Below are positions 5,263-39,599 of a stretch of 64,000 nt of DNA, piece by piece (the stretch's first letter is position 1; each line of letters opens with the position of its first letter). The stretch lies in assembly GCA_964467035.1 (NCBI GenBank), contig CAYXNX010000001.1, forward strand, positions 51,373 through 115,372. Reading direction: 5' to 3'. The stretch is from Candidatus Woesearchaeota archaeon (GTDB lineage: Archaea; Nanobdellota; Nanobdellia; Pacearchaeales; GW2011-AR1). The position numbers and the translations under genes were made by a program. Under the pieces are notes generated by a model. That model made no database searches. It was given only the letters and a program-made list of their open reading frames with translations, and had not been told where the DNA came from.

Positions 5263-5266
5263 CCTT

Positions 5267-5875: not shown

Positions 5876-5914
5876 TCTAAATAAAAGAAATCTACCAAAT
5901 AGTTATAATAACCT

Positions 5915-8401: not shown

Positions 8402-8445
8402 GTTAATTTGAGGTAATTAAATTATTTAAGTTTAACTATAAAAAA

Positions 8446-9042
8446 TCAGTCATTTACAATAGGCACAAAAACAAAATTCTGAAACTCTTGAATTTTATTC
8501 TCCCCTGATTCCTTTTTAACAACAACAATAGAATCTCTAACAGGAGCAACTAAAACTCCCTTAAATTTTAAATTATTATTAACTAAATCACTTGGGAATT
8601 CATCGAAAGCTGCACTTACTAAAATTCTATCAAATTTTTCATCACCAATTTTCTTCAATGCATTTCCACAATTTATCTCAATATTTTCATAATTTTTCAA
8701 TTTTTCTTTAGAACTTTGCACCAATTCGCTTATTCTTTCAATACCTAAAATCTTTCCATTTTTATTCAGTTCACTTAACAAAGCTAAAACATAACCACTT
8801 CCAGAACCAACTTCCAAAATCTTATCTCCCTCCTCAACTTCCAACAAAGTAAGCATAAAAGCAATAGTATAAGGTTGAGAAATCGTCTGTCCTCCAAAAA
8901 TTGGTAAAGGCACATTTTTATATGATTCTTCCTTTAACTCAGGTGAAACAAACAAACTCCTATCTACTTTTTCAAAAGCATCCATAATTTTATCTGGAAA
9001 ATTAAATTTCTTCAATTCCTTAATCATATTTTCTTTATTCAT
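8446..9042 (-). CDS. pcm: protein-L-isoaspartate O-methyltransferase
   Basis: ISQPYTIAFMLTLLEV..ILEVGSGSGY SAM-binding motif. Confidence 0.8.
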   Translation of the reverse strand: MNKENMIKELKKFNFPDKIMDAFEKVDRSLFVSPELKEESYKNVPLPIFGGQTISQPYTIAFMLTLLEVEEGDKILEVGSGSGYVLALLSELNKNGKILGIERISELVQSSKEKLKNYENIEINCGNALKKIGDEKFDRILVSAAFDEFPSDLVNNNLKFKGVLVAPVRDSIVVVKKESGENKIQEFQNFVFVPIVND

Positions 9043-9268
9043 TTTAATCCAAAGTATTTAACACAAAAAAATATTTAACACACAATTATGCAAATAACAA
9101 AGACCCCCAAATTTTAAGTAATTTTTGGTTTTAGATTCAAACAAATAAAATCAAAATCAGTCAAAGAAAAAAGGAATTAAGATAATTAAAACAAAAATTC
9201 CAAATTTTTAATAAACCAAAAATTATTTAATAATAACTATCCAAATACATAAAGGTAATCAAATAAAA

Positions 9269-9829
9269 ATGAAGTTTACAATTTGCAAAAAAATATTTGG
9301 AAAATATTCTGTCCAAGATTCTTCTGGAAAAAATTTATTTTTTTGCAAAAGAAAATTCCCTCTTTTTTGGAGATATAAGTTTATAGATTCAAATAAAAAA
9401 GAAATTTTTTCAATAAAAAGAAAAAAATTTTCATTTGCCTACGAAATTTATGAGTTAAAAAAAGAAAATAACAATTATGCAAAAGTGATAAAAGAACCAG
9501 CATTCAATATGCTTTTTCCAACAATCCCGTTAGGAGTAAATAAAAAATCAAACGACTTAACAATAGCAAAGATAAAAAAACAAAAAGGGACAACAATCAA
9601 AATGAATGCTAAAAATTTGATACAAGAAAATTATCAAGCAGATTTTATCCAAGAAGGCAAAACTATTGCAAAATCAAAAAAAATATTGGGATTAAAAGGA
9701 GTAACAAAACTATATGATGTTGAGATTATTAAAAGTCAAGATACTCCATTAATTTTTGCTAGCTTAATTATAATGGATATTATGTCAAAAAATACTAAAA
9801 AAACTCAAACAGCATGCAATCAGGCATAA
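9269..9829 (+). CDS. LURP-one-related / DUF567 (tubby-like fold) protein
   Basis: pattern FSIKRKKFSFAYEIYELKKENN.. resembles LOR family. Confidence 0.35.
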   Translation: MKFTICKKIFGKYSVQDSSGKNLFFCKRKFPLFWRYKFIDSNKKEIFSIKRKKFSFAYEIYELKKENNNYAKVIKEPAFNMLFPTIPLGVNKKSNDLTIAKIKKQKGTTIKMNAKNLIQENYQADFIQEGKTIAKSKKILGLKGVTKLYDVEIIKSQDTPLIFASLIIMDIMSKNTKKTQTACNQA

Positions 9830-9935
9830 GAATTGGGGGAAGAAAATAAAATAAAAATTCACTGAACAATACTACTTCCAATAAAATCTATTAATTCTAA
9901 ACTCCCCCCAACTATTAAAGAGAAGTGTGATACTT

Positions 9936-9953
9936 TTTCAAAGCGCCCCGACC
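9936..9953. repeat. attL-like 18-bp direct repeat tttcaaagcgccccgacc (copy of tRNA-Asp 3' end)
   Basis: exact match to 19792..19809. Confidence 0.7.
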
Positions 9954-9970
9954 GCACGTCATGAATTTGT

Positions 9971-11431
9971 TTAACGCTCTTTTTGTTTTAGTTTATTTAA
10001 TTTATTGAATCCCTCCAATAATTCTTTTATTTCTTTCTGAGCCTCTTCAATGATGGCTTTGCTTTCTCTATAATTAACTTCTTTCTCTTTCTCTTTCCGA
10101 TATCTATTAATTGATAAATCCCATCCTTTTTCTTTTATTTCTTCAAAAGGAACAAAGAAATGTTTTTCAAATCTGTCCTCGTTGCATTCATTGAATCTTT
10201 TTTTAAATCTCTCTAAAACATCAGGAATATCATTCTTTTCTATAGGATTTCTTTTATCATCTAAACTAAATCCATCATTTTCCATTTTGTAAAACCAAAC
10301 TTTTTCTGTAGGTTCTCCTTTTGTGAAGAATAAAACTGCAGTTGAAACTCCTGCATATGGCTTAAATACTCCCGAAGGCATAGATATAACTGCATCTAAT
10401 CGACACTCTTCTAATAACAGCTTTTTAACTGACTTATGAGCATTAGAATTACCAAATAAAACGCCTTCTGGAACAATTACAGCACATCTTCCACCAATAT
10501 TCAGAGAATTATACATAAGCTGTAAAAAAAGCAACTCTGTTTTGCTTGTGCTTATTGTTAAATCATCAGATTTCTCGCTTTGATTTATAGATCCCTTAAA
10601 TGGAGGATTTGCTAAAATTAAATCATAAATTCCTTTTTCATCATATCTTTTTGATAGAGTATCTTCTCCAATTATATTTGGATTAGTAATTCCGTGCATC
10701 ATTAAATTCATAACTGCAATTCTAACCATTGTTCTATCAATATCATAACCATAAAGGGATTCTTCATCCAATATTTTCTTTTTCTGATAAGTTAAGGTGC
10801 TAATACCATTTTTTTTATTTGTTTTTAATATGTGTTCATAAGCATTGACTAAAAATCCAGCAGTTCCACAGGCAGGATCTAAAATTCTATCACCAAATTC
10901 TGGTTTTGAGAGTTCAACCATCATCTTAATTATGTGTCTTGGAGTTCTAAATTGTCCATTCTTACCAGCAGTTGTTAATTCAGACAAAAGATATTCATAA
11001 ATATCTCCTTGTGTATCTTGGTTTTGTTCTTTTATATGTAAATCGTTGATAATATTAACTGCCTCAATTAAAAGCGAAGCAGTTGGTAATGAAAATGTAG
11101 CATCTTTCATATAATTATTATAATGTGAATTATTTCCTCCAAGGGTTCTCATAAAAAGAAATACTCTATCTCGAACATGAGGCAATATTTTGTCAGCAGG
11201 GTATTCACTCCAAACAGACCACTTACAATCTTCATTTCCCTCAAAAATAGATTTGTGTTTAATTCCCTTTAATCTTGCGTTTTGCTCTTCCCAAATGTCT
11301 CTGTCTTCAAGCTTTTTCATAAAAATTAAGTAGGATATTTGCTCAATTGCCTGAAGAGGATTACTAATTCCTCCGCTCCAAAATTTATCCCATAATTTTC
11401 TTATTTTTGATTTAAGTTCTGTGTGTAACAT
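9971..11431 (-). CDS. hsdM: type I restriction-modification system methyltransferase subunit
   Basis: N6-adenine MTase motifs DPACGTAGFL and NPPF. Confidence 0.9.
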   Translation of the reverse strand: MLHTELKSKIRKLWDKFWSGGISNPLQAIEQISYLIFMKKLEDRDIWEEQNARLKGIKHKSIFEGNEDCKWSVWSEYPADKILPHVRDRVFLFMRTLGGNNSHYNNYMKDATFSLPTASLLIEAVNIINDLHIKEQNQDTQGDIYEYLLSELTTAGKNGQFRTPRHIIKMMVELSKPEFGDRILDPACGTAGFLVNAYEHILKTNKKNGISTLTYQKKKILDEESLYGYDIDRTMVRIAVMNLMMHGITNPNIIGEDTLSKRYDEKGIYDLILANPPFKGSINQSEKSDDLTISTSKTELLFLQLMYNSLNIGGRCAVIVPEGVLFGNSNAHKSVKKLLLEECRLDAVISMPSGVFKPYAGVSTAVLFFTKGEPTEKVWFYKMENDGFSLDDKRNPIEKNDIPDVLERFKKRFNECNEDRFEKHFFVPFEEIKEKGWDLSINRYRKEKEKEVNYRESKAIIEEAQKEIKELLEGFNKLNKLKQKER

Positions 11432-11433
11432 GT

Positions 11434-12591
11434 TTATTGTGTTTCCTCTTTGTTTAAATCAGAGAGTGGAACCTTAAATACCTTTATAATACTTTTACAT
11501 TCATCTATGAGTTGTTGATAATTTTTTACTTGGATATTATGTAAATATTGGTTAAAAAGTTCAATAAAATCTTGCGGTTCTTTTCCGACTATTACCAAAC
11601 CAAACTGAATTCTATTACCTTCTTTTTTAGATTCCATGTAATGTATTAATTGAGAGATTGCTCTCCCAACTTGTGCTCCTATTGCATCTCTTTTTCTTTG
11701 TTTTACAATTGTTTTTGAAGAAGGAAGTTTCAACTCTATAAATATGTCCTTTCCTCTTTGAGATTTAAAACGGGAAACCCAAAGATCAATGTACCCTTTC
11801 TTATCTTTTCCAAATTTAACTTCAACCTCTTTTTCTAAATTAAATTGGCTAATATTTTGATATTTAAAATCAATAATCCAAATATTATTTTTAAGTTCAT
11901 CTCTTAATTCATCTTCAGAAATCTTCGGATTATTAACTTTTTCTTCAAATTCTTTTAATTTTTCTTCATAATAGGGAATATTCGTATGCAATTGGTTATG
12001 ATAATAATTCATAAACCCTGTAAATATTCTTGATGCTGTTTGTGGATCATTTTGTGGCAAATTCTCCATTATATCGTCAGGAGAAATATATTTTTTATTT
12101 TCTTTTTTAGTGTGTTTTAAATCTATCCAATCATTTATTATGTCTTCTTCTTCAGATGTGAGATCCTTAACAAGAAATAATCTTATTCGTTTATATTTAT
12201 CTGAAAAAGTTTGGATAAATTTCCTAAATCTTAATATATTAACTATTAAAATTTTTTTCCCATTTGAGAGAGTTTTATATTTAAAATTCCTGCTTATAGT
12301 TCGTGATACAATTAAATAATCAATTTCTTCTGAAACTAAATCAAATAAAGGAGTATGTGGGCCAATAATACTTGGGCCTGCTTTATTGGGCGTAAAATCG
12401 CATAAGACACTTCCAAAAGTTGTTTTACTTGTCCAATAAGGCTTAACAAAAATATTTAATTCATTTGCTATCATTCTGATAGTGGATTTAAGATATTTCT
12501 CACATCTTTGTTTAATATATTTGAGTGCAGTGGTATTGGAATACATCTTTTCAAGATCTCCTTTACGTATCCTTTGAAAATAATAACCCAT
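11434..12591 (-). CDS. uncharacterised protein with C-terminal PD-(D/E)xK nuclease-like motif (Shedu/DUF4263-like?) between hsdM and hsdS
   Basis: GYIDLWVSRFKSQRGKDIFIELKLPSSK then QVGRAISQLIHYM; position typical of defence insertions. Confidence 0.3.
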   Translation of the reverse strand: MGYYFQRIRKGDLEKMYSNTTALKYIKQRCEKYLKSTIRMIANELNIFVKPYWTSKTTFGSVLCDFTPNKAGPSIIGPHTPLFDLVSEEIDYLIVSRTISRNFKYKTLSNGKKILIVNILRFRKFIQTFSDKYKRIRLFLVKDLTSEEEDIINDWIDLKHTKKENKKYISPDDIMENLPQNDPQTASRIFTGFMNYYHNQLHTNIPYYEEKLKEFEEKVNNPKISEDELRDELKNNIWIIDFKYQNISQFNLEKEVEVKFGKDKKGYIDLWVSRFKSQRGKDIFIELKLPSSKTIVKQRKRDAIGAQVGRAISQLIHYMESKKEGNRIQFGLVIVGKEPQDFIELFNQYLHNIQVKNYQQLIDECKSIIKVFKVPLSDLNKEETQ

Positions 12592-12592
12592 C

Positions 12593-13717
12593 TTACAATT
12601 CCCCCCTAAATGCTTTACTAATAAGAGAATTAAATAATTCTTCAGAATTTTGTTTAGTTTTGTTTATTTGTTCTTTCATTTTTTCAACTTGTTTAACAAT
12701 AAAGGCAAATTTTTGTTGGAGAGGAAGGGGGGCATCTATAAAATTAATTCTGTAAACATCATTCCTGTTTAAGCCAGGTATTGCCGTAGAACTATTTAGT
12801 TTTAAGTTATAAAATTTTAATAAATAATACAAATATGCAAGGTCCATTTTCTTTAAGGGTTTTACATAATAAGTTGTATCAATAGCCCAAAAATTTTCTT
12901 TAGAATAATTAACCTCTCCTATTGACCCCTTTCTTCCTATGATTATTCCAGGACCTTCAATTAAAAATTTTGAATGTTTTCCCACAATTCCGTTAGACCC
13001 ATAAACAGGATATTTTCCCCCATCTCTTTGTTTTTCAGATAAACCTTTTCCATATGTTAATTCAAATAATTCTTTTCCTGTTTTTTCTTCAAACTCCTTA
13101 TTATAAAACATTTCATAAAAAACACTTTTCAAATATTCATCAAGTAATTCCTCTGCTTTTTCGCTTTTGTTAGTTAATTCCTCTGCTTTTTCTAAAAGTT
13201 TGACAATTCTTTCTTGTTCTTGCAAGTCTGGTTTGCCGTTGGAGAAAGGAATAGGTATTTTTATTGATTCAAATCTCCCTTTAGTTATGTGTTTCATAGT
13301 TGAGCCATGACTTTCTTTTAAGAAAAGATGAATAGTTTTTTTAACAAAATAATAAAGATATTTTTTATAAATAGATTCTTTTTTTGGAACAACCTTAAAG
13401 ATATGCTGATTTAACCAACCCTCTTCTTTATCCCATAAAAACGCATCTAATGTTGCAGACCATGAAATTAACAAGTCGCCTTTCTTAACAAGATATTTTT
13501 TATCAAAAGTTTTAGTTGTATAATTTGGATTAGTGATTGATCCAGTTAAATCCTGAATTCTAATTATTAATTTTCCTTTTGATTCCCATTCAAAAGGTTT
13601 GAATGCCCTACCATTTACAAATTGAGCTACATCTTTAAGTTCCAGTTCTTTCCATTCAGTTTTATTTTTTTGTATTTGTTGTTTCATTTTCTTTTTTCTT
13701 TTTCTGTTGAAATTCAT
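12593..13717 (-). CDS. hsdS: type I restriction-modification specificity subunit
   Basis: LKDVAQFVNGRAFKP target-recognition domain opening; coiled-coil spacer; two TRD halves. Confidence 0.8.
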   Translation of the reverse strand: MNFNRKRKKKMKQQIQKNKTEWKELELKDVAQFVNGRAFKPFEWESKGKLIIRIQDLTGSITNPNYTTKTFDKKYLVKKGDLLISWSATLDAFLWDKEEGWLNQHIFKVVPKKESIYKKYLYYFVKKTIHLFLKESHGSTMKHITKGRFESIKIPIPFSNGKPDLQEQERIVKLLEKAEELTNKSEKAEELLDEYLKSVFYEMFYNKEFEEKTGKELFELTYGKGLSEKQRDGGKYPVYGSNGIVGKHSKFLIEGPGIIIGRKGSIGEVNYSKENFWAIDTTYYVKPLKKMDLAYLYYLLKFYNLKLNSSTAIPGLNRNDVYRINFIDAPLPLQQKFAFIVKQVEKMKEQINKTKQNSEELFNSLISKAFRGEL

Positions 13718-14852
13718 AATTTCTTGTAGTTATATTTTCTATTATTTTAACAAGTTCAATGATTAACCTTTTCGCTCTTTCTTTGTCTATGTCGGTTTTT
13801 ACAATACTTCTTAATGCAGGAAGTTTTTCTGCAGTTGTGTAAGTGGGCTTAGGTTTTTCTTTTCCAGTTAAATCTACCAAATAAACAGGAACAACTACTT
13901 CAGAAATTATTTTGTGCCAATTAGAATGAATATAATTATTTCTTATAAATTCTCTTAATTGGTGTAAATACTTTTTTTCCTCTCCAGAAATATATTTCTC
14001 TACACAACAATCATTAATTAAATCAGACAATTCTCCTTCATAATGATTTCTTTTTTTATAATACCATATTTCTTTTAAAAAAGATTCAATAAAAATAGAT
14101 AACATACAAACAGAGGCATTAAAATTTCCAAACCAATAATTACTTATAGTTTCATAGTATAATGATTTATTTTCTGGTTCAAGATGAATTTTAGTTTCTA
14201 ATAGAGGTAATTCTCTAATTCTCTCTAAAATTTCTTCTTTTTTATTAAGAAAAGATTTGTAAATTTCCTCAGCCTCCTCCTTTTTTAAAAAATATTCTTC
14301 ATTCTTTATTTTTCTTTTGTTGAAATGTTCAGACCTATCCATTAGTTCATTTAATTCGTTAATTGCTTCGTCTATATGTTTTATAGCATCCGAATCTTCT
14401 TCATATCCTTCCTTTAACATTTTTTCTTTTTTGTACAAAAATCTATCTCTTTGAAAAATAAGATTTGTGTATGAAACAAATTTAGAAGGGTTTTCTACTG
14501 CATCTAAATTAAAATTATTTTCTAAATCTTGGAAATACTTAGCAAATTTGTAAATATTATTATTCTCATCTTTAAACGATTGAAATAATCTTGAATTGCC
14601 TCTATGTTCCGAAAACTCCTTACGGCTAATAATTTTTTTGTCATATAAAAAATCCAATAATGTTTGAATATCGCATTCATTTTTTATTTCTCTTGCGAGA
14701 TAATGATAGAGATTACTTTTATTATTAACAAAAAGTTTATCAAAACTCCCTTTTATTTCTTTTTTTAAATCTTCAAACTCTTTTTTAAGTTTTTCAAATT
14801 GAAATGTTATTTTTTCTGGTTCTGAAAATTTATCTTTATTCTTCTTGTCCAT
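13662..14852 (-). CDS. uncharacterised 396-aa protein with HEPN-like Rx4H motif (Abi-like) between hsdS and hsdR
   Basis: C-terminal FIRNNYIHSNWH; helical Lys/Glu-rich N-terminus. Confidence 0.3.
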   Translation of the reverse strand: MDKKNKDKFSEPEKITFQFEKLKKEFEDLKKEIKGSFDKLFVNNKSNLYHYLAREIKNECDIQTLLDFLYDKKIISRKEFSEHRGNSRLFQSFKDENNNIYKFAKYFQDLENNFNLDAVENPSKFVSYTNLIFQRDRFLYKKEKMLKEGYEEDSDAIKHIDEAINELNELMDRSEHFNKRKIKNEEYFLKKEEAEEIYKSFLNKKEEILERIRELPLLETKIHLEPENKSLYYETISNYWFGNFNASVCMLSIFIESFLKEIWYYKKRNHYEGELSDLINDCCVEKYISGEEKKYLHQLREFIRNNYIHSNWHKIISEVVVPVYLVDLTGKEKPKPTYTTAEKLPALRSIVKTDIDKERAKRLIIELVKIIENITTRNYEFQQKKKKENETTNTKK

Positions 14853-14853
14853 T

Positions 14854-15081
14854 TTAATTCTCTTTTCCTAAATTCAATATTTTAAATAAAATTCCGTATA
14901 TTCCTGAAATTTCTGCTATAAAAAAACACAGGATAAGCAAAGGATGTAACCAGCCATAGCCAGAAAGGGTTGGTATACCTTCTAAAGACTCTCTCAAAAT
15001 TTGAGTAAAAGAAAATGATAGATTTATTATTAATGCTAATATGCTACTTATTAAAATTTCAATTTGCGTTTTTTGTTCCAT
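14854..15081 (-). CDS. small two-TM membrane protein
   Basis: 75 aa, two hydrophobic helices; overlaps neighbours by 1-4 nt. Confidence 0.4.
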   Translation of the reverse strand: MEQKTQIEILISSILALIINLSFSFTQILRESLEGIPTLSGYGWLHPLLILCFFIAEISGIYGILFKILNLGKEN

Positions 15082-15716
15082 TATTGTGGTCTCCCATGAA
15101 TTTTTTCTTTAACTACTTCATCAAAAAATTTATCCACTCCAAAAGTTGATATCTTTTTATTTGTAATGAATGCTTTTGTTGAATCTTTAGAAATATAATC
15201 TACTAATGATTTTCCTGTATTATGAGTACAATGCAACAAAGCAATAAAATCTTTCTTTGGAGATTTTTCAAATTCGCAGTAATAAGCCATTTCTTTATTA
15301 TTCAACTTTATCCCGTGTCTATTTCCATGACCAATTAAATATATTACCCTTGCTTTAGGATTATTAATTATTTTTTTAAGATTTGCTCTATCAGTATTAA
15401 AATATATCTTATATGCCCAATTTTTCTTCCTAAAAAATTTAACTAATTTTTTCAAATTTTGTCTATAAATTAGTAATTTTTCAGGCATGTAATCATTACA
15501 TAAGATTATTGCAATATGATTTTTATTAGAATTTAATTCAAAATTTTTATGTAAATAATACCATTGTGGTAAGATGAATATAGAAAATGCAGGAACAAAT
15601 AAATAATTAATAATAAAAGTTCCAATTTTAAGATAAAGCCATGCAATCCCCATGTAAATAAAAAAGGCTAAAACAATTAAATGCAAATTAGTCAAAATCC
15701 AAGATAGCAAACTCAT
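15081..15716 (-). CDS. membrane-anchored minimal caspase-like (clan CD, His/Cys dyad) protein
   Basis: two N-terminal TM helices; IAIILCNDY strand, IYLIGHGNRHG (His motif), ALLHCTHNTG (DxCHSG-like Cys motif). Confidence 0.3.
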   Translation of the reverse strand: MSLLSWILTNLHLIVLAFFIYMGIAWLYLKIGTFIINYLFVPAFSIFILPQWYYLHKNFELNSNKNHIAIILCNDYMPEKLLIYRQNLKKLVKFFRKKNWAYKIYFNTDRANLKKIINNPKARVIYLIGHGNRHGIKLNNKEMAYYCEFEKSPKKDFIALLHCTHNTGKSLVDYISKDSTKAFITNKKISTFGVDKFFDEVVKEKIHGRPQ

Positions 15717-15886
15717 TCTTCATCCTCCAAATCAATCTCTTTTCTTACCATTTCTCTCAGTTTCTCATTTATAGACTTCTCCTCTTTTTCACAGAGTTTT
15801 TTTAACAGAAGAAATTCACTTTTATACAATCTTGTAGAAACAATCTTCCTCTCTTCCCCGCTTAAAGGATTATCTTTTATTACCAT
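15713..15886 (-). CDS. ribbon-helix-helix (CopG/Arc-like) protein, 57 aa
   Basis: MVIKDNPLSGEERKIVSTRLYKSEFLLLKKLCEKEEKSINEKLREMVRKEIDLEDEE; ATGA overlap with caspase-like gene; not in ORF track. Confidence 0.45.
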   Translation of the reverse strand: MVIKDNPLSGEERKIVSTRLYKSEFLLLKKLCEKEEKSINEKLREMVRKEIDLEDEE

Positions 15887-15947
15887 TAAAGATGTCAGAT
15901 AATTAGAGTATTTAAATCTTTTCTAAAAACCTGTATACACCTTTTGA

Positions 15948-16304
15948 CTAGTTATATTCCAAAATTTCTTTCTTTGGCTCCTTATGTCCAAGGCTAAGAG
16001 TTAAAGGAATTGATATATTTGCTTCTTTTCCTGCTTTTTTGAAAGTAACTATCAATAACACATAAACATGGTTTGTTTTATAATTAATTGACATTTTAAT
16101 GCTTTTAATTGATTTTAAAGTGTTCTTGTCTATGCCTAAATTTTCACTTGCATCCATTATCTCAATACCACATATAAAGTTATTGCGGTTTACGTCAAGA
16201 ACAAAATCCCCAATATCTATGGATACCCTTGCCTTTTCCCCATTATTTATAAAGAATATATCATTCTCAAAATCATAATCTATTGTTTTAATCTCTCTTG
16301 CCAT
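15948..16304 (-). CDS. DUF2283-family protein (antitoxin-like partner of DUF4258)
   Basis: YDFENDIFFINNGEKARVSIDIGDFVLDVNRNNFICGIEIMDASENLG. Confidence 0.5.
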   Translation of the reverse strand: MAREIKTIDYDFENDIFFINNGEKARVSIDIGDFVLDVNRNNFICGIEIMDASENLGIDKNTLKSIKSIKMSINYKTNHVYVLLIVTFKKAGKEANISIPLTLSLGHKEPKKEILEYN

Positions 16305-16588
16305 TTTCTATCACTATTCCAAGCACTTATAACTTTTAAATCTTTTGAAACAACGATTTCAATTATCAATACTAAAGAGTATTTTCTACTCATTTTAAAC
16401 CAAAGTTTAAATCTATCTTCTGTTTTTCCTTTTTCAATCTTTTCCAATTTATTTATTTGTGATAAAAAACTTCTCACCATGCTTTCGCTTATAGGTCTTT
16501 CACCCATTTTTTTGTAAAAATGAGGGTCAAAACTTACATTGTTTTGATTAAGATTTTCAAGGAATTTTTTAACTTCTTTCATTTCCAT
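16280..16588 (-). CDS. DUF4258-family protein (toxin-like)
   Basis: FDPHFYKKMGERPISESMVRSFL resembles DUF4258 H..ER..R.I motif; overlaps DUF2283 gene. Confidence 0.45.
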   Translation of the reverse strand: MEMKEVKKFLENLNQNNVSFDPHFYKKMGERPISESMVRSFLSQINKLEKIEKGKTEDRFKLWFKMSRKYSLVLIIEIVVSKDLKVISAWNSDRKWQERLKQ

Positions 16589-19329
16589 TTTAACCCATTA
16601 CATTTTTGAACTATTTTTTCAAGCTGTTTTTTAGTGAAAGAATCCAGAGGTCTTGCATCTGCAAGAGGATGCTCAGCAAGATTTTTTAATTCAATATGCT
16701 TTGCTCTTACAAAAACTTGTTCTAATAATCTTAAAAATTTCAATTGCTGAGAATTATAATGTTCATTTTTATCCATAACAAATTTATCAAATTCCCATTT
16801 AATCATCTCTTGAGGATCTGGCAATCCCTTTATATCTAATAATTCTCTTAAAAAAGAAATAAAATCTTTAGTCTGTTGAATATTCTCAATAGTCAAAGAA
16901 GGATTTAATTCTCTAAGTTTCTTTTCTATTCGGATAATCTCTTTTGGTGTAACTCCCTCGCCATTTTTTATTTTTTGCATAAGAGGATCGCTGTTAATAA
17001 AATAACTAAAATCTTCATCTTCTTTAACCTGCATCATTTCTTTTTCAACTTTAACTACTATATCTGGAGCATCTATTTTTAACATTTTCTTTCTTTCTTT
17101 TTCATAAAAAATCATGAGAGGGGCAATATCTCTAACTAAAAAATCAACATCTTCAAAAGTAATCTCTTCCCAGAATTGTTCTTTTTGGATTCTAATCAGA
17201 TCATCTTTTTTCTGTCTTACAGCATCAAGATTCTTATCCCAAATCGCTTCTGCCCTTTCAACTACATACTCCTGAACTTTTGCTATTTTATCATTATTCT
17301 CTGTTTTGATATAATCAAACAATTTAACACATTGGGAAATAAAACTATACACTTTTGTGTTCTCAGAAGGAGAATAAATTAACAAAGGGGCTATCTCATC
17401 TTTCAATTCTTTTATATGTTCTTTTAAATCAAATTTAGATGAAATAACTTTTTTAATAATCCCTTTCTTTTCTACCACCATAGGAGATTCTATGTCTATT
17501 TTTTTAACAGTATCTTTTATTTGCTTTTCAAGTATTCTTTTCTCTTTTTCATTAAGATTTTTTTCTAGAGTATCAACTTGTTCTAAGAATATTCTTGTTT
17601 TTGCATCTAAAGTTGGGGTTTTATGATTTAAATCTTGTAATTTGTGAACAAGTATATTTGAGTAGTCTCCAAATTTAAAATCAAGAATTAAAAAATTGTC
17701 TTTTATGTGTTGACCTTCATTATTTGTCGGAAGCCATTCTTTGTTTTCACATGCTGAGAAATTTCTGGTTCCTCTACCCAACATCTGCCAAAATCGTATA
17801 GAAGACATAACAGGTTTCACGAAAACTAAATTCATTACTTCAGGAATATCCACTCCTGTATCTAAAACACCGACAGATAAAGCAATTCTTGGACTATCTC
17901 TTTTTCCAAATCTTTTAACTTCGTCCATATAGCGTGCCCTGTCTGAAGTAATTACTTTAATTTCTTTTGCTAATGTAGGATAAAGTTTCTGGAAAAGAGC
18001 TTCTATAGATTCAGCGTGTTTAATGCTCGCACAAAAGAAAATGCTTTTACAAGGTCTTTTATCATCTGATTTATAACACCTTTCCATAAACTCTCTAATT
18101 ATTAACTCATTTGTCCTTTTATCTGTAAATAATCTTTCAAATTTAGAACCTGGAGTTTGGAAGCGTTCAGGATCTTCTTCCTGGACTTTTAACTTTTGTT
18201 GCAATTCCTTACTTAATGTTTTACCCTCTATTCCTAAAGAAAGGATTTTTGTTTCAATAATCTCTGAAACATATGGTGCTAAAACGCCATCTCTCACTGC
18301 AGAAAGATAATCATACTTATATGTTGGTTTTTTATTTTCACAACCAAATAATTCATAAGTGTTCCTCGAATCTTCAAAAGAAGGCGTGGCAGTAAGACCA
18401 ATTTTTATAGCATCAAAATACTTAAAGATATCATTATTTTTATCATAATAAGATCTATGTGCTTCATCAAAGATTATTAAGTCAAATGCTCCAGGACCAA
18501 ATTTCTCATAAAATTTTCCTCTTGGTTTTTGAGGAGACATCAGTGTTTGAACTGTAGAAACATAAAATCTTGCACTATCTGAGAAACCCTCTATGTTTAA
18601 CTCACAAACTGGAGTTTCAGGAAAGAATTTTTTAAAGCCTTTTTCTTTTGCTTGATTAGATAAAGAAATTCTATCAACTACAAATAAAACTTTTTGAACA
18701 TTTTCTGTTTTTACTAAACAATCAATTAAAGCCATAGCAACCCTTGTTTTTCCTGTTCCAGTAGCCATATTAATAAGAGCCCTTTTATGGCCTTGAAAAA
18801 TATGCTCTAAAATTACCTTAACAGCTTCAACCGCCCTTTTCCTGTCAAGGATATCTGATCTAATCTTAGAATTAACAGGATTTTTTCTTTTTTTCATCAA
18901 ACTAACAATTCTATGCAAATCTTTTTGTGAAAAAGGTAATGTGATTTTTCTTCTCCTGTCTAAATCATCTACATAATACCAACTTGTTCCATTTGTGAGA
19001 AAAATAGGGATTTTTATTTTGATTTGCTTTTCAATATCATTTCTATAAGTTCTTGCTTGGATTTCTCCTTTTTCAACGCTAACAGATGTTTTTTTTGCTT
19101 CAATAATTGCCAAAGGTGTTCTATCCTCATCTAATAATAAATAATCTATAAATCTATCAATTCCTTTTTCTATCCCTAATCCAATACCAAAATATTCCTT
19201 AGTTTGAAAATTAGATTTAACAGGATTTATTTCTTCTTTTACATAATGTCCTTTAACTTTCCATCCTGCTCTTTCTAAAATAGGATCAATTAATTTTTTT
19301 CTTGTTTCTTTCTCAGATATTTTATCCAT
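16579..19329 (-). CDS. hsdR: type I restriction enzyme R subunit
   Basis: N-terminal nuclease domain, helicase motifs NMATGTGKT and DEAH, 916 aa. Confidence 0.9.
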   Translation of the reverse strand: MDKISEKETRKKLIDPILERAGWKVKGHYVKEEINPVKSNFQTKEYFGIGLGIEKGIDRFIDYLLLDEDRTPLAIIEAKKTSVSVEKGEIQARTYRNDIEKQIKIKIPIFLTNGTSWYYVDDLDRRRKITLPFSQKDLHRIVSLMKKRKNPVNSKIRSDILDRKRAVEAVKVILEHIFQGHKRALINMATGTGKTRVAMALIDCLVKTENVQKVLFVVDRISLSNQAKEKGFKKFFPETPVCELNIEGFSDSARFYVSTVQTLMSPQKPRGKFYEKFGPGAFDLIIFDEAHRSYYDKNNDIFKYFDAIKIGLTATPSFEDSRNTYELFGCENKKPTYKYDYLSAVRDGVLAPYVSEIIETKILSLGIEGKTLSKELQQKLKVQEEDPERFQTPGSKFERLFTDKRTNELIIREFMERCYKSDDKRPCKSIFFCASIKHAESIEALFQKLYPTLAKEIKVITSDRARYMDEVKRFGKRDSPRIALSVGVLDTGVDIPEVMNLVFVKPVMSSIRFWQMLGRGTRNFSACENKEWLPTNNEGQHIKDNFLILDFKFGDYSNILVHKLQDLNHKTPTLDAKTRIFLEQVDTLEKNLNEKEKRILEKQIKDTVKKIDIESPMVVEKKGIIKKVISSKFDLKEHIKELKDEIAPLLIYSPSENTKVYSFISQCVKLFDYIKTENNDKIAKVQEYVVERAEAIWDKNLDAVRQKKDDLIRIQKEQFWEEITFEDVDFLVRDIAPLMIFYEKERKKMLKIDAPDIVVKVEKEMMQVKEDEDFSYFINSDPLMQKIKNGEGVTPKEIIRIEKKLRELNPSLTIENIQQTKDFISFLRELLDIKGLPDPQEMIKWEFDKFVMDKNEHYNSQQLKFLRLLEQVFVRAKHIELKNLAEHPLADARPLDSFTKKQLEKIVQKCNGLKWK

Positions 19330-19370
19330 ATTATTTGAAGAGAATCATGATATAAAAACTTATTTCTAAT

Positions 19371-19736
19371 TTATTTTACCCTAAATGCAGACTCAAGAAT
19401 CATTTTCCCAGAATCAGATATAATATATAGCTTTCCTTTTTTAGATTTTGGATTCAAACACTTTTTTGTTTCAGCAGACCATTCTTTTTGTTCAATCTCT
19501 GCAACAACTCTTCTTAAATCTTCTTTTGTTGCTTTTTCAAAGGGCTTATTTAGAATTAAAGCAAAAGTTCGAATATCTAACATATATCTTCCAATTTTAG
19601 CGACGCCAATTCCTTCACTTAAAAGATAATCTCTGAATTTAATACACGATTGTTTATTCTTAGCAGAAATTTTGTTATTTGACTTAATAAGCTCAACATT
19701 TCTTTCAAGCTGTCTTTTGTAGTTATGTATATCCAT
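19371..19736 (-). pseudogene. tyrosine recombinase/integrase N-terminal (SAM-like core-binding) domain only; catalytic domain missing
   Basis: 121 aa with A-T--i--fr-yl-----s--ti--yl-d-r-F pattern; ORF stops 41 nt before hsdR start. Confidence 0.5.
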
Positions 19737-19791
19737 TACTCATTTAACGTCCCAAGGGAGTAATAAAGGACATTGATGAGCGTTATCAAAA

Positions 19792-19809
19792 TTTCAAAGC
19801 GCCCCGACC
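19792..19809. repeat. attR-like 18-bp direct repeat overlapping tRNA-Asp 3' end
   Basis: exact match to 9936..9953. Confidence 0.7.
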
Positions 19810-19871
19810 GGGAATCGAACCCGGGACTCAACCGCGACAGGGTTGTATTATAACCACTTAACTACCAGGGC
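19800..19871 (-). tRNA. tRNA-Asp (anticodon GUC)
   Basis: hand-folded cloverleaf: acceptor GCCCUGG/UCGGGGC, D stem GUUA/UAAU, anticodon stem CAACC/GGUUG, loop CUGUCGC, T arm CCGGG-UUCGAUU-CCCGG. Confidence 0.85.
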
Positions 19872-19961: not shown

Positions 19962-20213
19962 TTATTTTTCTTCGTCTTCTGAATCGTCTTCTGATTCATC
20001 TTCTGAATCGTCTTCTGATTCATCTTCCGAACTGTCGTCTTCCGAATCATCTGAATTATCATCAGAGTCATCGTCTTCTTCTGAATTTTCTGATTCGTCT
20101 TCACTTACTTCGACAGCTTCACTTTCTTCTGCTTCACTTTCTGGAGTTTCATTTAAATCTGCATTTTCAGATTCTCCAGATGTTTGTTCTTGGTTTATTT
20201 GTTCGTCTTCCAT
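19962..20213 (-). CDS. highly acidic (Asp/Glu/Ser-rich) low-complexity protein
   Basis: ORF of 83 aa, DSEDES-type repeats. Confidence 0.3.
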   Translation of the reverse strand: MEDEQINQEQTSGESENADLNETPESEAEESEAVEVSEDESENSEEDDDSDDNSDDSEDDSSEDESEDDSEDESEDDSEDEEK

Positions 20214-20321: not shown

Positions 20322-20443
20322 GAGCCCATAGCTCAGTCAGGTTAGAGCGCTGGTCTTATATGGCTACAATTCATTAGGATTGTTGTTCTCTAAGGATGAC
20401 CTAAGAGAGCCAGAGGTCCCCGGTTCGAATCCGGGTGGGCTCA
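20322..20443 (+). tRNA. tRNA-Ile (anticodon UAU) with 47-nt intron at canonical 37/38 position (intron 20361..20407)
   Basis: exons fold as acceptor GAGCCCA/UGGGCUC, D stem GCUC/GAGC, anticodon stem CUGGU/GCCAG, loop CUUAUAA, T arm CCCGG-UUCGAAU-CCGGG; intron ends pair with the exon anticodon-loop region. Confidence 0.7.
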
Positions 20444-20583
20444 GAATTAAGGGGAACTTCGCGAATCAAAGATTCGCGGCGTGAGGTCCCCGGTTCGAAT
20501 CCGGGTGGGCTCAGAATTAAGGGGAACTTCGCGAATCAAAGATTCGCGGCGTGAGGTCCCCGGTTCGAATCCGGGTGGGCTCA
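20414..20583 (+). repeat. 3 tandem copies (period 70 nt) of tRNA-Ile 3' portion (variable loop+T arm+acceptor 3' strand) separated by identical 40-nt hairpin spacer
   Basis: aggtccccggttcgaatccgggtgggctca x3; spacer contains cgcgaatc-aaa-gattcgcg hairpin. Confidence 0.8.
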
Positions 20584-20590
20584 GAAAAAA

Positions 20591-21023: not shown

Positions 21024-21293
21024 ATGCCAAAGAAAAAGGTTGCAAAAAAGAGTGTGAAGAAAAGTTCTAATAAATCTAACAAAAAAATTGCAAGTAAAAA
21101 GACAAATAAAAAAACAGCCAAATCTTTTAATAAAAAACAGACAGATTCTCAATCAATCTTAGGAGCTTTCATAGCAACTTTTTTCAGTTTAATTGGAGCA
21201 GTAATTTCTTTATTAATCTGGCACAAAAACGAATATGTTGTTTTTTACGCTAAACAATCTTTAATTTTATTTCTCATTGCCTCATTGCATTAG
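21024..21293 (+). CDS. Lys-rich N-terminus plus TM protein; apparent frameshift, reading continues in another frame to 21397
   Basis: frame shifted by 2 nt after 21290 reads ALVLSIFSGLVLWIPIIGWGIGVVLQIFVIILWVLT*. Confidence 0.35.
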   Translation: MPKKKVAKKSVKKSSNKSNKKIASKKTNKKTAKSFNKKQTDSQSILGAFIATFFSLIGAVISLLIWHKNEYVVFYAKQSLILFLIASLH

Positions 21294-21647
21294 TTTTATC
21301 AATATTTTCCGGATTAGTATTATGGATACCAATCATTGGATGGGGAATCGGCGTAGTTTTACAAATTTTTGTAATCATCCTTTGGGTTTTAACATAGATT
21401 TATTCTTTATCTGGAGAAAAAAGAAAAATTCCTTTTATTAGAGTCTTTATGAGATAATTTTTTAAAAATATTAAAGTTAAAATAGTTGTAGGATTAATCA
21501 AAAACCTGAAAAATTTAAAAAATTCTCAAACAATTAAAACTCCCAAAATTTAAAAAGATAGTTAGATTTAAAAACTATTTTGCGATTTATTTTTTAGATG
21601 CTTTGGATAATTCCTCCAGGAATTTTCTAAAAGAAATCAAAGTCTTT

Positions 21648-21720
21648 GCCCCTGTGGTGTAGCGGTCAAGCATAGAGCCCTTTCGAGGCTCTGACCCGGG
21701 TTCGAGTCCCGGCGGGGGCA
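21648..21720 (+). tRNA. tRNA-Glu (anticodon UUC)
   Basis: acceptor GCCCCUG/CGGGGGC, anticodon stem GAGCC/GGCUC loop CUUUCGA, T arm CCGGG-UUCGAGU-CCCGG. Confidence 0.85.
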
Positions 21721-22143
21721 TTTAAAGATAAGGATTGAACAAAGTGAAATCCTTCTTTCTCCGAGAACTTCTGAGAACTCTGCTTGACAATTTCAATGAA
21801 AGGGAAGTTAAATGTTAAGAAACCATAGGGGTCATACAAGTTCGAGTCCGAGCAATTTTGCGAGTGGAGGAAAACAAGGGGTGAATCAAGGCGAGCAGGG
21901 TTGCGAGAAGGCGGGGGCATTTAAAGATAAGGATTGAACAAAGTGAAATCCTTCTTTCTCCGAGAACTTCTGAGAACTCTGCTTGACAATTTCAATGAAA
22001 GGGAAGTTAAATGTTAAGAAACCATAGGGGTCATACAAGTTCGAGTCCGAGCAATTTTGCGAGTGGAGGAAAACAAGGGGTGAATCAAGGCGAGCAGGGT
22101 TGCGAGAAGGCGGGGGCATTTAAAGATAAGGATTGAACAAAGT
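21721..22143 (+). repeat. 2.1 tandem copies of a 199-bp unit immediately after tRNA-Glu; each unit ends with the tRNA 3'-terminal 10 nt ggcgggggca
   Basis: 21721..21919 and 21920..22118 identical; third partial copy to 22143; contains degenerate T-loop-like gttcgagtcc. Confidence 0.8.
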
Positions 22144-22298: not shown

Positions 22299-23543
22299 AT
22301 GAACAAGTTTGAACAAATACTAGGAAGAGACAATCCTATCTTAAAATCAATAAAAGATAAGGAATTTGAAATCCCTACAGAAATACAAGAAAAAACAATT
22401 CCTCCAATTTTAGAAGGAAAAGATGTTATAGCTAGTTCTGCAACTGGTTCGGGAAAAACCTTCGCCTTTTCTGTTGGACTAATTAAAAACATTGAAAAAA
22501 ACAAAGGATTGCAAGGTATTGTCCTAACTCCTACAAGAGAATTAGCAGAACAAGTTAAAAAAGAACTATCAAACTTTTCAAAAATAAAAGAATTAAGCGT
22601 TGTAGAAATCTATGGAGGAGTTTCAATAGAACCCCAAATAAAAAGACTAAAAACAGCAGAAATAGTAATTGGAACACCTGGCAGAATTTTAGACCATTTA
22701 CAAAAAAACACACTCAATCTATCAAAAATAAATACTCTTGTTTTAGATGAAGCTGACAGGATGTTAAATATGGGTTTTATAGAAGATGTGAACAAAATCA
22801 TTTCAAAAATACCTAAACAAAAACAAACCCTTTTATTCTCTGCAACACTACCTCCCAGAATAATCAACTTATCAAAAAAATATATGAAAAACCCAATAGA
22901 ACTCTCCGCCCAAACAAATGTAGACCCAAAAAAATTAGAACAGGTTTTTTACGACATATCCCCTGACTTAAAATTCTCTCTTTTAGTCCACTTATTAAAA
23001 CAAGAAAAATCAAAACTTGTAATGATTTTCTGCAATACAAGAAACAATGTAGATTTTTTAGCAAACAATCTAAAACCCTTAGGATTTAACTCTACACCCA
23101 TTCACGGAGGATTTTCCCAAGATAAAAGAACAAAAACCCTAAACAAATTCCACTCCCAAGACACAAATATTTTAATTGCAACAGATGTAGCAGCAAGAGG
23201 ATTGGATATAAAAGAAGTAACCCACATCTACAACTATGACATACCAGCTAATGCTGAAGAATACACTCACAGAATTGGCAGAACAGCTCGTGCAGGAAAA
23301 GAAGGAAAAGTTATAAACATAGTTTCAAAACGAGACTACGACAATTTTAGAAATGTTGAGCCCTTAGAATTTGGAATTAAAGAATTAAAACCCCCTTATA
23401 TTGAAAAAGTTAGTCTAAAATGGATGCCAAAAAAAGATTTTAAAAAAGGATTTTCAAGAAGAAACAACCAAAACAATTCAAAACCCCAAAGAAATAGAAA
23501 TTCTAGAAAAAAATTCCAAAAAAATACAAGACGAAAATATTAA
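22299..23543 (+). CDS. DEAD-box ATP-dependent RNA helicase
   Basis: motifs ASSATGSGKTFAF, PTRELA, DEAD, SAT, HRIGRTARAG; basic C-tail. Confidence 0.9.
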   Translation: MNKFEQILGRDNPILKSIKDKEFEIPTEIQEKTIPPILEGKDVIASSATGSGKTFAFSVGLIKNIEKNKGLQGIVLTPTRELAEQVKKELSNFSKIKELSVVEIYGGVSIEPQIKRLKTAEIVIGTPGRILDHLQKNTLNLSKINTLVLDEADRMLNMGFIEDVNKIISKIPKQKQTLLFSATLPPRIINLSKKYMKNPIELSAQTNVDPKKLEQVFYDISPDLKFSLLVHLLKQEKSKLVMIFCNTRNNVDFLANNLKPLGFNSTPIHGGFSQDKRTKTLNKFHSQDTNILIATDVAARGLDIKEVTHIYNYDIPANAEEYTHRIGRTARAGKEGKVINIVSKRDYDNFRNVEPLEFGIKELKPPYIEKVSLKWMPKKDFKKGFSRRNNQNNSKPQRNRNSRKKFQKNTRRKY

Positions 23544-37391: not shown

Positions 37392-39599
37392 TTAACGTAC
37401 TTCCCATTTATTAAATCCAGCACTATCACTTAAATAAATTTTTCCCCCTTTATACACAAAAATTTGTTGCTCACCGAATCCTGTTCGGAACCAAAAATTA
37501 ACACCTCCTTTTAATTCCAAAGTGCAATTTCCATAAATACTTGTTTCAGGACCTTCAATTGAATAATTCTGAATCCCTTTATACCCTGTTTCAGGCACAC
37601 ACTTCCCATCTTCACACCCATAATTGCAAAAAATCTTTTTTGTATCTACATTTGCCCCATTACAATAAGCTTCTTCAACATACCAATCATCATTTCCAAA
37701 AGGATTATAAACACACTCATCCCAAACTGCTTCATTTGAATCCATTGCAACACTATAAATATATGAATCAAAATCATAATCCTTTACTTCATAATCAACA
37801 TTTAACAAATCACCACTTGTATTCATAAAATCATAATCAAAACACCCAATCTCTCCCAAACTTGTATCTTGAAAATCACTCCCATTAAAAGAATAAAAAC
37901 TTAAACCATCTGCTAAAAGAACCTTATCATGATAAGGACTATAATACCCGTGAGTAGGAGAAAAACTTGCTGTATAATTATCCTTAAACTTGTCTTCACT
38001 ATTAGTAGTTTCATTATTATGAACTATTTGCAACTTATTATCCTCCCACCAATGCAAATCTCCATACTCATTCCCAAAAGGACTTAAATAAGCTGTATCT
38101 ACTTTTTCAATAAATCCCGGATTATTTGTATCTTCAATATCATAAAATCTCCATAAATTACTAGTTGGATTAAAAACCAAAACCTTATCCCCTTTTTCAG
38201 ACCAAACATTAATCCTCCCCCCACCAACACTATCAAAACTATAAGCATTACTCACTTTTGCTGAAGGATTTGGGTCATCCCCATAATAAAAACTACAAGT
38301 CCTATTACACTCCCAATTATCCATCTCAGGGTCACAAGGACCTTCACCATGTTCTACAATTAATTTAATAGGGTAATAACTATCCTCTCCCATTTCTCCA
38401 GCAAACTCTAAATACCCTTCTTCTCCACCACTTCCCAAAAATTCATAACTTGACTTTAACCCGATTGCAAAAAAATCATCTTTCAAATTTGCCTTCAAAT
38501 CTTCTTCTGCATTACTTCCCAAAAAATACCTATCAACACTTGTCTCATTTGCTGACTCATTATAAAAAGAAGTAGAATTTTCAACATAAAAACCCAACCC
38601 ATTTGCCCCCTGCCCAATATCATTAAATAAATCTTCATTTCCTGTTTCATTATCTGGATAATTTGATTCATTTGTTATTTGAGTATCATTAAATCTTGAA
38701 ATAGAAACATTTATAGCACGAGTTCCACTTTGTCTTATTAACGGAACTGTAAGCTCAACACCTCTTATTTCCACAATATCATCAATAACTGAAGTATCAA
38801 ACTCTATAAAACCCCTATAAACAGAATTGTAAGAATTTTGCCCAGATTCTGTATTACCAATAGTTTTCAGATTTGTGCTACCTAAAAAAGAAGCACGAAG
38901 ATCTACTCTTTCAAAATCATAAACATCTCCATTTTGTTTAACAGTCCCTTTAAAAGGTCCATCAAAACAATTTACTACACAAGGAAGCCCATCAACTGGG
39001 TCAACCTCAATAGGATACTCAGCATTTTCCAACCATTCTTTATCAATCTCAACATTTAAATCAAGAAGTTTATTCCTTTCATCAAAATAAATTACATAAT
39101 TTCCATAAGAAACATCCCCATTATAATCAGTAGCAAAAGGCCTTGCAAGAGAATGAACAAACTGCTTATTAAAATCTCTTAAAACCAATTCCTCATTTTC
39201 AATACTTACTTTAACTCCTTTATGGATTTCATAAATTCCAAAATCAAAAACATTTTTTTCAGGAATATCATCAACCGGAATTATTGTTTTTTCAAGTTTT
39301 GGATTTGATAATTTTTCTAATTCAACAAATTGCTCTCCATCATAAAAAAATATATCTTCTGGAAAAATCTCAGTTCTATAACCTCCCCCACTTTTTCTAA
39401 ATGTTTTAGAGCTATATGTTCTCTTGGAAATAATTTCTTTTCCTTCTACTTCTTCAACACTTGAATTAACCTGCTCTTCAACAACATTTCCACTAATCTT
39501 ATTTTCTGTTTGAAAAAAATTCCCATCCCCCACCGCCCACGCCAAACCCCCAATTACCAAAACAACTATTCCAAAACTCATCCAAAATTTACTATTCAT
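37392..39599 (-). CDS. large secreted protein (735 aa) whose N-terminus is the intact copy of the R element
   Basis: MNSKFWMSFGIVVLVIGGLAWAVG signal. Confidence 0.5.
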   Translation of the reverse strand: MNSKFWMSFGIVVLVIGGLAWAVGDGNFFQTENKISGNVVEEQVNSSVEEVEGKEIISKRTYSSKTFRKSGGGYRTEIFPEDIFFYDGEQFVELEKLSNPKLEKTIIPVDDIPEKNVFDFGIYEIHKGVKVSIENEELVLRDFNKQFVHSLARPFATDYNGDVSYGNYVIYFDERNKLLDLNVEIDKEWLENAEYPIEVDPVDGLPCVVNCFDGPFKGTVKQNGDVYDFERVDLRASFLGSTNLKTIGNTESGQNSYNSVYRGFIEFDTSVIDDIVEIRGVELTVPLIRQSGTRAINVSISRFNDTQITNESNYPDNETGNEDLFNDIGQGANGLGFYVENSTSFYNESANETSVDRYFLGSNAEEDLKANLKDDFFAIGLKSSYEFLGSGGEEGYLEFAGEMGEDSYYPIKLIVEHGEGPCDPEMDNWECNRTCSFYYGDDPNPSAKVSNAYSFDSVGGGRINVWSEKGDKVLVFNPTSNLWRFYDIEDTNNPGFIEKVDTAYLSPFGNEYGDLHWWEDNKLQIVHNNETTNSEDKFKDNYTASFSPTHGYYSPYHDKVLLADGLSFYSFNGSDFQDTSLGEIGCFDYDFMNTSGDLLNVDYEVKDYDFDSYIYSVAMDSNEAVWDECVYNPFGNDDWYVEEAYCNGANVDTKKIFCNYGCEDGKCVPETGYKGIQNYSIEGPETSIYGNCTLELKGGVNFWFRTGFGEQQIFVYKGGKIYLSDSAGFNKWEVR

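Follow-up and report, generated by a model that had tools for sequence, protein, structure and literature searches.

A regenerated tRNA gene accompanied by a displaced fragment of its own 3' end marks an integrated genomic island (the Islander principle; PMC4383910, and Williams 2002, NAR 30:866, as cited there). Elements of this kind that have decayed while keeping their flanking attachment (att) sites, known as cis-mobilizable elements (CIMEs), can persist and accrete, so that integrated elements come to stand in tandem at one target (Pavlovic 2004; review PMC5704250). Among archaea, SSV-type and pNOB8-type integration likewise uses tRNA targets and leaves tRNA fragments near the target, as in Caldiarchaeum (PMC3293823). 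Here we describe a locus that shares features with each of these systems, found in a 64,000-nucleotide stretch of a Candidatus Woesearchaeota archaeon genome (contig CAYXNX010000001.1, positions 51,373 to 115,372; hereafter the window): an intact tRNA-Glu gene followed by a tandem array of identical 199-bp units, each ending in the terminus of that same tRNA. It represents a footprint of a well-known kind in an archaeal group that has been little studied, in a variant that is small, devoid of genes, and amplified in tandem.

The tRNA-Glu gene stands close to a tRNA-Ile and a tRNA-Asp gene, and as in tRNA-integrated islands generally, each of the three is intact and has a direct-orientation copy of its 3' end downstream; at tRNA-Asp, the repeats furthermore bound foreign defence genes and an integrase remnant. 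The repeats begin at about tRNA position 43, at the T-loop, or consist of the 3' terminus plus flank, extents that resemble the known sublocation classes of such islands. Unlike those islands, the segments at tRNA-Glu and tRNA-Ile measure only 164 and 36 bp, contain neither gene nor integrase, occur as identical tandem copies, and have no known attP donor. Similarly, the locus recalls CIMEs in that integration genes are lacking while attL and attR are kept, and in that three or more att copies are arrayed at one target. However, CIMEs are kilobase-scale derivatives of bacterial integrative and conjugative or integrative and mobilizable elements whose accreted partners are usually different elements, whereas the units here are identical, tiny, and archaeal. 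The SSV-type and pNOB8-type cases, for their part, involve recombinase-encoding inserts of at least 1.8 kb, often with 5' fragments or split integrase genes, none of which is found in the Glu array.

The array downstream of tRNA-Glu

The features of the array are as follows, where A and B denote its two alternating components:

21648-21720, + strand: intact tRNA-Glu(UUC) gene (Rfam RF00005, 60.7 bits; ARAGORN)
21711-21745, + strand: A copy 1, a 35-bp att-like repeat, carrying the first half of the hairpin aaggatt...aaatcctt
21746-21909, + strand: B copy 1, a 164-bp gene-less insert
21840-21849 and 22039-22048, + strand: T-loop-like 10-mer GTTCGAGTCC
21910-21944, + strand: A copy 2
21945-22108, + strand: B copy 2, same sequence as copy 1
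22109-22143, + strand: A copy 3, followed by unique flank and then by a DEAD-box helicase gene (22299-23543)

Tandem Repeats Finder (TRF) places the array at 21711-22143, with a period of 199, 2.2 copies, 100% matches, and a score of 866. Units 21721-21919 and 21920-22118 agree exactly, and 22119-22143 repeats the first 25 nt of the unit. The 3' terminus of every 199-bp unit is GGCGGGGGCA, the last 10 nt of tRNA-Glu, which yields direct-orientation copies of the tRNA end at +189 and +388 from the gene. On all of these details (identical units of 199 bp, a third copy begun, a shared 10-nt end), the first-pass annotation of the window agrees with both TRF and direct inspection of the sequence. 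The array can be parsed as A-B-A-B-A, with A (35 bp), present in three identical copies, joining the final 10 nt of tRNA-Glu to the 25 nt that flank it on the 3' side, and B spanning 164 bp; identical repeats thus bound a gene-less segment, as expected of an att-flanked element. Simple duplication of unique DNA leaves no third A, which means that an older A-B-A must have preceded the present array.

B itself is composite. The initial ~95 nt occur in the window lineage alone, while the last ~69 nt (21841-21909) form a GC-rich pseudo-3'-fragment with a homologue in a sister lineage; GC content is 44% over B as a whole and 53% over its last 68 nt, in a window of 30%. The 10-mer that this region has in common with the T-loop is weakly above chance (35 of 2000 shuffles score equally well), and an in-register alignment pairs the end of B with the tRNA T-arm region (GGGTT-CGAG ... 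GGCGGGGGCA; p ~0.03), which fits a decayed displaced tRNA fragment that would once have been longer than 10 nt. A TATA-like TTTAAAGATA lies at the start of each 199-bp unit.

The reading that we favour, with a probability of roughly one half, is that non-coding B is trapped between att-like copies of A, as an integration remnant amplified by unequal recombination. A mobile element would have inserted itself by site-specific recombination into the tRNA-Glu 3' end; the tRNA would have been restored in the process and a copy of its terminus shifted downstream, in the manner of tRNA-targeting tyrosine integrases; the inserted DNA would then have shed its genes and shrunk to a short remnant; and the 35-bp repeats would then have served as substrates for unequal homologous recombination, or for replication slippage, which multiplied A+B into the observed architecture. 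The same process would have acted at tRNA-Ile, with tRNA-Asp retaining a full-size island.

A sister lineage and the two neighbouring tRNA genes

The host is a DPANN archaeon: the window encodes eIF2-gamma and ribosomal protein S6e, and the best named relatives of the DEAD-box helicase beside the array lie in metagenome-assembled genomes of Pacearchaeota/Nanoarchaeota. The sole related lineage in the databases searched is a sister lineage sampled in four Joint Genome Institute (JGI) samples (loci L004/L008, L005, L009, and L010). Its helicase has 77% amino acid identity to that of the window and is syntenic, and the sister lineage is collinear with the window except beside tRNA-Asp. Downstream of tRNA-Glu, the sister lineage begins with an unrelated stretch of 64 nt, then has a ~80%-identical match to the last ~69 nt of B, and then the hairpin flank that in the window directly follows tRNA-Glu. 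The sister pseudo-fragment (seen in L004, L005, and L009) ends in GGCGGGGGGCA, ~135 nt after tRNA-Glu, and is present in a single copy; at this site L004 has neither the tandem array nor the first ~95 nt of B, and keeps the displaced fragment. Since the sister lineage shares it in single copy, the tRNA-end copy joined to the original flank is ancestral, and the duplication of the tRNA end is therefore older than the tandem amplification. The amplification, together with the first ~95 nt of B, is specific to the window lineage.

This ordering bears directly on how the second unit arose. The first-pass annotation had suggested repeated site-specific recombination, which is not the best account of two identical 199-bp units when the tRNA-end duplication is old and single-copy in the sister lineage; recent unequal recombination or slippage fits the perfect tandem copies better. 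One might go further and dispense with a recombinase altogether, attributing the whole structure to slippage or template switching near GC-rich tRNA hairpins and taking the 10-nt tRNA overlap as incidental to the Glu array. The perfection of the tandem copies would agree with such an origin, as would the fact that 25 of the 35 nt of A are flank and not tRNA, and the window shows a further event of the slippage type, in which 8 nt were duplicated and the gene at 21024-21441 was thrown out of frame. However, the first A-B-A could not be created by slippage, because B is new sequence between the A copies; the sister tRNA-end copy is single and has a different intervening sequence; and the strict downstream-only bias and enclosed gene cassettes described below point to integration. 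We thus regard a recombinase-free origin as unlikely, and prefer integration followed by decay and amplification.

Further support for integration comes from the tRNA-Asp locus, whose features are the following:

19800-19871, - strand: tRNA-Asp(GUC) (ARAGORN; Rfam)
19792-19810: proximal copy of a 19-bp direct repeat, TTTCAAAGCGCCCCGACCG, made up of 12 nt from the tRNA-Asp 3' end and 7 nt from the flank
9936-9954: distal copy of the 19-bp repeat, the far border of the island
9955-19791, - strand: ~9.8-kb island between the 19-bp repeats (Pfam; PADLOC)
9971-11431, 12593-13717, and 16579-19329, - strand: hsdM, hsdS, and hsdR, respectively, of a type I restriction-modification (R-M) system in the island
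11434-12591, - strand: SduA-like nuclease in the island
15948-16588, - strand: DUF2283 pair in the island
19371-19736, - strand: 121-aa open reading frame (ORF) adjoining tRNA-Asp, with a faint PF02899 match

The 121-aa ORF is homologous to the N-terminal SAM-like domain of tyrosine integrases and is a truncated remnant, the only integrase sequence of the island. One homologue (P0126), in L094 and L096, bears PF02899 followed by a fragment of the catalytic domain (PF00589), and another (P0125) lies 65 nt after tRNA-Glu(CUC) in L091. In the sister lineage, locus L008 lacks the R-M island at tRNA-Asp, a ~1-kb Fic gene replacing ~11 kb that include it; both the Asp site in L008 and the Glu site in L004 are thus empty or differently occupied relative to the window. 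The tRNA-Asp locus is a classical tRNA-integrated island with a decayed integrase. The Fic gene of L004 is itself bounded by an imperfect repeat of ~36 nt, of which ~10 nt come from the tRNA-Asp end and ~26 nt from the flank, the same geometry as in A. The earlier proposal that all three tRNAs within 2 kb have duplicated 3' ends is partly right: tRNA-Ile has its own array (70 bp x 2.5), and tRNA-Asp has no duplicate close to the gene, the copy of its end (the 12 nt within the 19-nt repeat) lying at +9846, 9.8 kb downstream.

Two observations adjoin this island. Just outside the 19-bp repeat that closes it, window positions 8442-9935 encode a PCMT methyltransferase (8446-9042) and a LURP-one-related protein (9269-9829) that are also absent from the sister lineage; this may be a second, older island adjoining the R-M island. 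In L094 (9224-10297) and L096 (1461-2534), a tyrosine integrase is apparently split into three ORFs of the same lengths in both (105 aa, SAM-like; 83 aa, catalytic fragment; 104 aa), in assemblies from different sources, and could be either a shared pseudogene or a genuinely split gene. Elsewhere in the window, the ~1.27 kb between the eIF2-gamma and S6e genes (4657-5925) has no sister counterpart, no ORF of at least 100 aa, and no Rfam match above noise, and contains a GC-rich island at 4815-4850.

The second array follows tRNA-Ile, 1.3 kb upstream of tRNA-Glu, and is laid out as A'-B'-A'-B'-A':

20322-20443, + strand: tRNA-Ile(UAU) with a 47-nt anticodon-loop intron (Rfam, 59.8 bits; ARAGORN with introns allowed)
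20413-20586, + strand: whole tRNA-Ile array (TRF)
20413-20446, 20483-20516, and 20553-20586, + strand: A', 34 bp (tRNA positions 43-73 plus GAA)
20447-20482 and 20517-20552, + strand: B', 36-bp hairpin spacer

Here the 70-bp units are 100% identical by TRF, and 31-nt copies of the tRNA-Ile 3' end stand in direct orientation at +60 and +130. The Ile array and its spacer have homologues in both the window lineage and the sister lineage. Unit copies are 100% identical within a genome, whereas 5 of 70 positions differ between the lineages, including a compensated acceptor-stem change; and the number of spacers differs between samples, with two in L004 and one in L009 and L010. At the level of sequence, this pattern indicates copy-number turnover together with concerted evolution. 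L004 also has an extra 46-nt insert ended by a 27-nt copy of the tRNA-Ile end. Such behaviour resembles that of minisatellites expanding by unequal crossing-over, in the head-to-tail identity of units, the copy differences between samples, and the homogenisation within lineages (the latter two seen for Ile); unlike in plain minisatellites, it is the 3' end of a tRNA that fixes where the repeat is bounded, and a prior att-like repeat would have seeded the array.

Two neighbouring genes deserve mention. Between tRNA-Asp and tRNA-Ile, an 83-aa, highly acidic, low-complexity ORF (19962-20213, - strand) with a 12-nt periodic repeat (TRF 19971-20052) occupies the same position in the sister lineage. 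Between tRNA-Ile and tRNA-Glu, the membrane-protein gene at 21024-21441 is split into ORFs of 89 and 54 aa by the 8-nt tandem duplication (ctcattgc) mentioned above; the sister lineage has an intact 137-aa gene (L004 9020-9433), and the 89-aa product is encoded identically in a second assembly of the window genome, built by Logan with k=31 from SRR11308339.

That Logan assembly also informs the copy number of both arrays. Its contigs stop inside A and A', exactly at the last k-mer unique to each context, and therefore the reads hold A with two left and two right neighbours, so that at least A-B-A is proven. A k=31 assembly cannot count copies beyond this, and the number seen in the window (at least 2) is a lower bound; two spacers are the minimal assembler path through a loop for any true number of at least 2. 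The second 199-bp (and 70-bp) copy could be a product of assembly, the true structure being A-B-A, or the true number could be much higher. The breaks at A and A' would agree with this, as would the presence of exactly two spacers in every array, the outcome expected of a minimal de Bruijn traversal, and the variation between one and two spacers among the sister assemblies. Nevertheless, A is only 34-35 bp long, so that an assembler with a final k above 35 should give the loop only where B-A-B reads exist; A-B-A is confirmed in four independent assemblies; and the downstream copy of the tRNA end stands either way. An artefactual second copy is accordingly improbable in our estimation, and genuine amplification remains the preferred interpretation. 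The number of Glu units probably varies within the population. The Glu copies are 100% identical, and the one-versus-two spacer polymorphism is seen solely in the homologous Ile array of the sister lineage.

Copies of tRNA 3' ends in related DPANN loci

To place the window in context, we surveyed the tRNAs of the fetched loci, from which redundant and bacterial loci were removed to leave 25 DPANN tRNAs, scoring recurrence of the terminal 9-mer within 3 kb. The 3'-terminal 9-mer recurs downstream for 6 of the 25, and never upstream (0/25) or inverted (0/25), nor does the 5'-terminal 9-mer recur downstream (0/25); the downstream bias has a Fisher p of 0.02, or 2e-4 against the pooled controls. 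A candidate 3' duplicate of tRNA-Lys in L032 (7240-7560) proved to be a scaffolding artefact, with 100 N between overlapping contig ends, and is left out of the six; the same locus has a 22-nt copy of the tRNA-Lys 5' end 71 nt upstream.

Several of the surveyed copies enclose recognisable cargo. After tRNA-Asp in L006 (1580-3000, and likewise in L007) stand two ~650-bp toxin-antitoxin cassettes, one comprising an antitoxin and a ParE-like toxin and the other a VapB-like antitoxin and a 112-aa ORF, each ending in a repeat of the tRNA-Asp 3' end that measures 16 or 12 nt, with a Fic gene next. In L015 (3758-5000), the last ~10 nt of tRNA-Asp recur five times downstream of the gene, and between these copies lie two 120-nt units that are 94% identical, a cassette with a 234-aa ORF, and a spacer of 80 nt; just past these copies lies a DUF2283 pair resembling that in the window R-M island. 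In L091 (16492-16625), a 43-nt hairpin insert follows tRNA-Gly(CCC) inside a 15-nt repeat of the tRNA end. Homology between the L015 tRNA-Asp unit and B was considered and rejected, the shared 8- to 11-nt motif being at chance level. Together with the R-M island and its integrase N-domain remnant, these downstream-only, cassette-bounding copies bear out the suggestion of an integration hotspot at tRNA 3' ends, and the view that the three-tRNA cluster is such a hotspot in a Pacearchaeota-type DPANN genome is supported.

The same inserts invite a bolder explanation, in which miniature cassettes without an integrase of their own are inserted at tRNA 3' ends by a trans-acting recombinase, much as in integrons, and tandem copies are repeated insertions; the 164-, 36-, and 46-bp units and the ~650-bp toxin-antitoxin modules would then be the mobile units themselves and not decayed remnants. 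Many independent small inserts are indeed each closed by a tRNA-end copy (36, 46, 164, and 43 bp; two toxin-antitoxin modules of ~650 bp; ~1-kb Fic), none of them has an integrase, several of the small ones contain a hairpin, and GAATC-N3-GATTC is common to two. Yet no cassette was found at two different sites or genomes by BLAST across all loci, contig scans yielded neither an attP donor nor a cassette in free or circular form, and no recombinase emerged as a candidate. Moreover, duplex DNA of only 70 bp is too short to form a circle, and identical tandem copies with one-versus-two variation are explained more simply by unequal crossing-over. We therefore think it improbable that Pacearchaeota-type DPANN archaea possess a tRNA-anchored cassette system with its recombinase encoded elsewhere on the chromosome or on a virus. 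Such a system would span hairpin-only units of 36-164 bp up to single toxin-antitoxin, Fic, or R-M modules, each insertion would duplicate the tRNA terminus and so build integron-like arrays, and the tRNA-Glu units would be its smallest members.

A separate region of the window (39500-45900, - strand) looks like a cassette array with a repeated boundary motif. It contains nucleotidyltransferase (MNT)/HEPN toxin-antitoxin pairs (40630->39592, 44539->43537, and 45573->44652) separated by a conserved C-rich motif of ~40 nt (...CCCACCGCCCACGCCAAACCCCCAAT...; sites at 39518, 40687, 40773, 43413, 43467, 44565, and 45806), as well as a 44-bp tandem repeat (45691-45844) and, in the middle, an insertion sequence (DDE transposase, 41860-42732).

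Product, donor, and significance of the array

The first-pass annotation had raised an amplified tRNA-derived noncoding RNA, and a fuller version of that idea holds that a functional small RNA is encoded by B, or by the GC-rich 3' part of B, and is co-transcribed with tRNA-Glu, released by tRNA processing, and amplified for dosage. In its favour are the 53% GC of the last 68 nt of B against a genome of 30%, the ~80% identity to the sister lineage with substitutions mostly in the predicted loop and two compensatory pairs, and the TATA-like sequence that opens each unit. Against it, Rfam 15 matches the three tRNAs alone and nothing in B even at E <= 10; the unit folds no better than shuffled sequence (z = -0.9 on the + strand and +1.0 on the - strand); and conservation of B does not exceed that of neighbouring intergenic DNA (~82%), with the first ~95 nt unconserved and absent from the sister lineage. 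In addition, a covariance model of the conserved part of B, built on a two-sequence consensus fold, has no significant relative in 0.9 Mb of DPANN loci, and covariation between two sequences is not significant. Protein coding fares no better, as the Glu and Ile units have no + strand ORF of at least 50 aa and the overlapping antisense ORFs have no Pfam match. Overall, nothing that we found indicates that B is an RNA or protein gene, and an RNA function appears decidedly unlikely.

Two superficial resemblances can be set aside. As in Nanoarchaeum equitans, whose split tRNAs include isolated 3' portions with a GC-rich leader, the extra copies could in principle be stand-alone 3'-half genes, trans-spliced to distant 5' halves; the host belongs to the wider Nanoarchaeota/DPANN group, and the Ile unit has a 31-nt tRNA 3' half after a GC-rich hairpin leader. 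However, the Glu unit is contradictory to this reading, as it retains only 10 nt of tRNA with no T-arm and thus falls short of a complete 3' half; the Ile unit matches its tRNA from position 43 onward, which is not an exon boundary, and the anticodon-stem strand is absent; no second 5' half occurs in the 64-kb window; and the adjacent full-length tRNAs are intact. We give the split-tRNA explanation almost no credence. The Ile array also resembles a CRISPR array in dimensions (34-bp repeat plus 36-bp spacer), an identification that we reject on the basis of its identical spacers, the derivation of its repeat from a tRNA, and the lack of any cas family in the window ORFs scanned.

Integration followed by decay and amplification therefore remains the reading that we prefer, although several points weigh against it. 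Inserts of 36, 43, 46, and 164 bp would each need near-complete decay; repeat lengths range from 10 to 35 nt, so that the ruler of a single recombinase is not evident; the tRNA share of A is only 10 nt; the sequence of steps by which the hairpin flank came to adjoin the functional tRNA-Glu in this lineage could not be reconstructed; and the 53% GC over the last 68 nt of B is also expected of a structured RNA. The 25 tRNAs of the survey are few, and the positives come from related lineages. Neither was a donor found: five exact-match scans of viral contigs for B, B', and A-type att-like sites returned nothing, and with them no element whose attP matches the tRNA-Glu 3' end, as the first-pass annotation had proposed to seek; two exact scans each of metagenome and genome collections for B' were empty, as was a protein-based metagenome scan with the neighbouring 130-aa gene; and no second source of B, B', or the L004 inserts emerged from BLAST comparisons with the window and with all loci. 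No integrase occurs in or beside the Glu or Ile units or among the window ORFs scanned, and searches of the island and neighbouring ORFs with Pfam, PHROGs, NCBIfam, and PADLOC recovered none except the N-domain remnant beside tRNA-Asp.

If this reading is correct, the array is an ordinary evolutionary footprint rather than a new gene. Annotation should take account of such arrays, because short-read assemblies break at them and they can pass for RNA genes or split tRNAs. Only the unexpectedly small integrase-less cassettes, seen between tRNA ends in several lineages, could open the way to something new. For the biology of these organisms, it would mean that the tRNA 3' ends of very small DPANN genomes are active insertion sites at which defence and toxin cassettes come and go, and that leftover att-like repeats can seed fast-changing tandem arrays.

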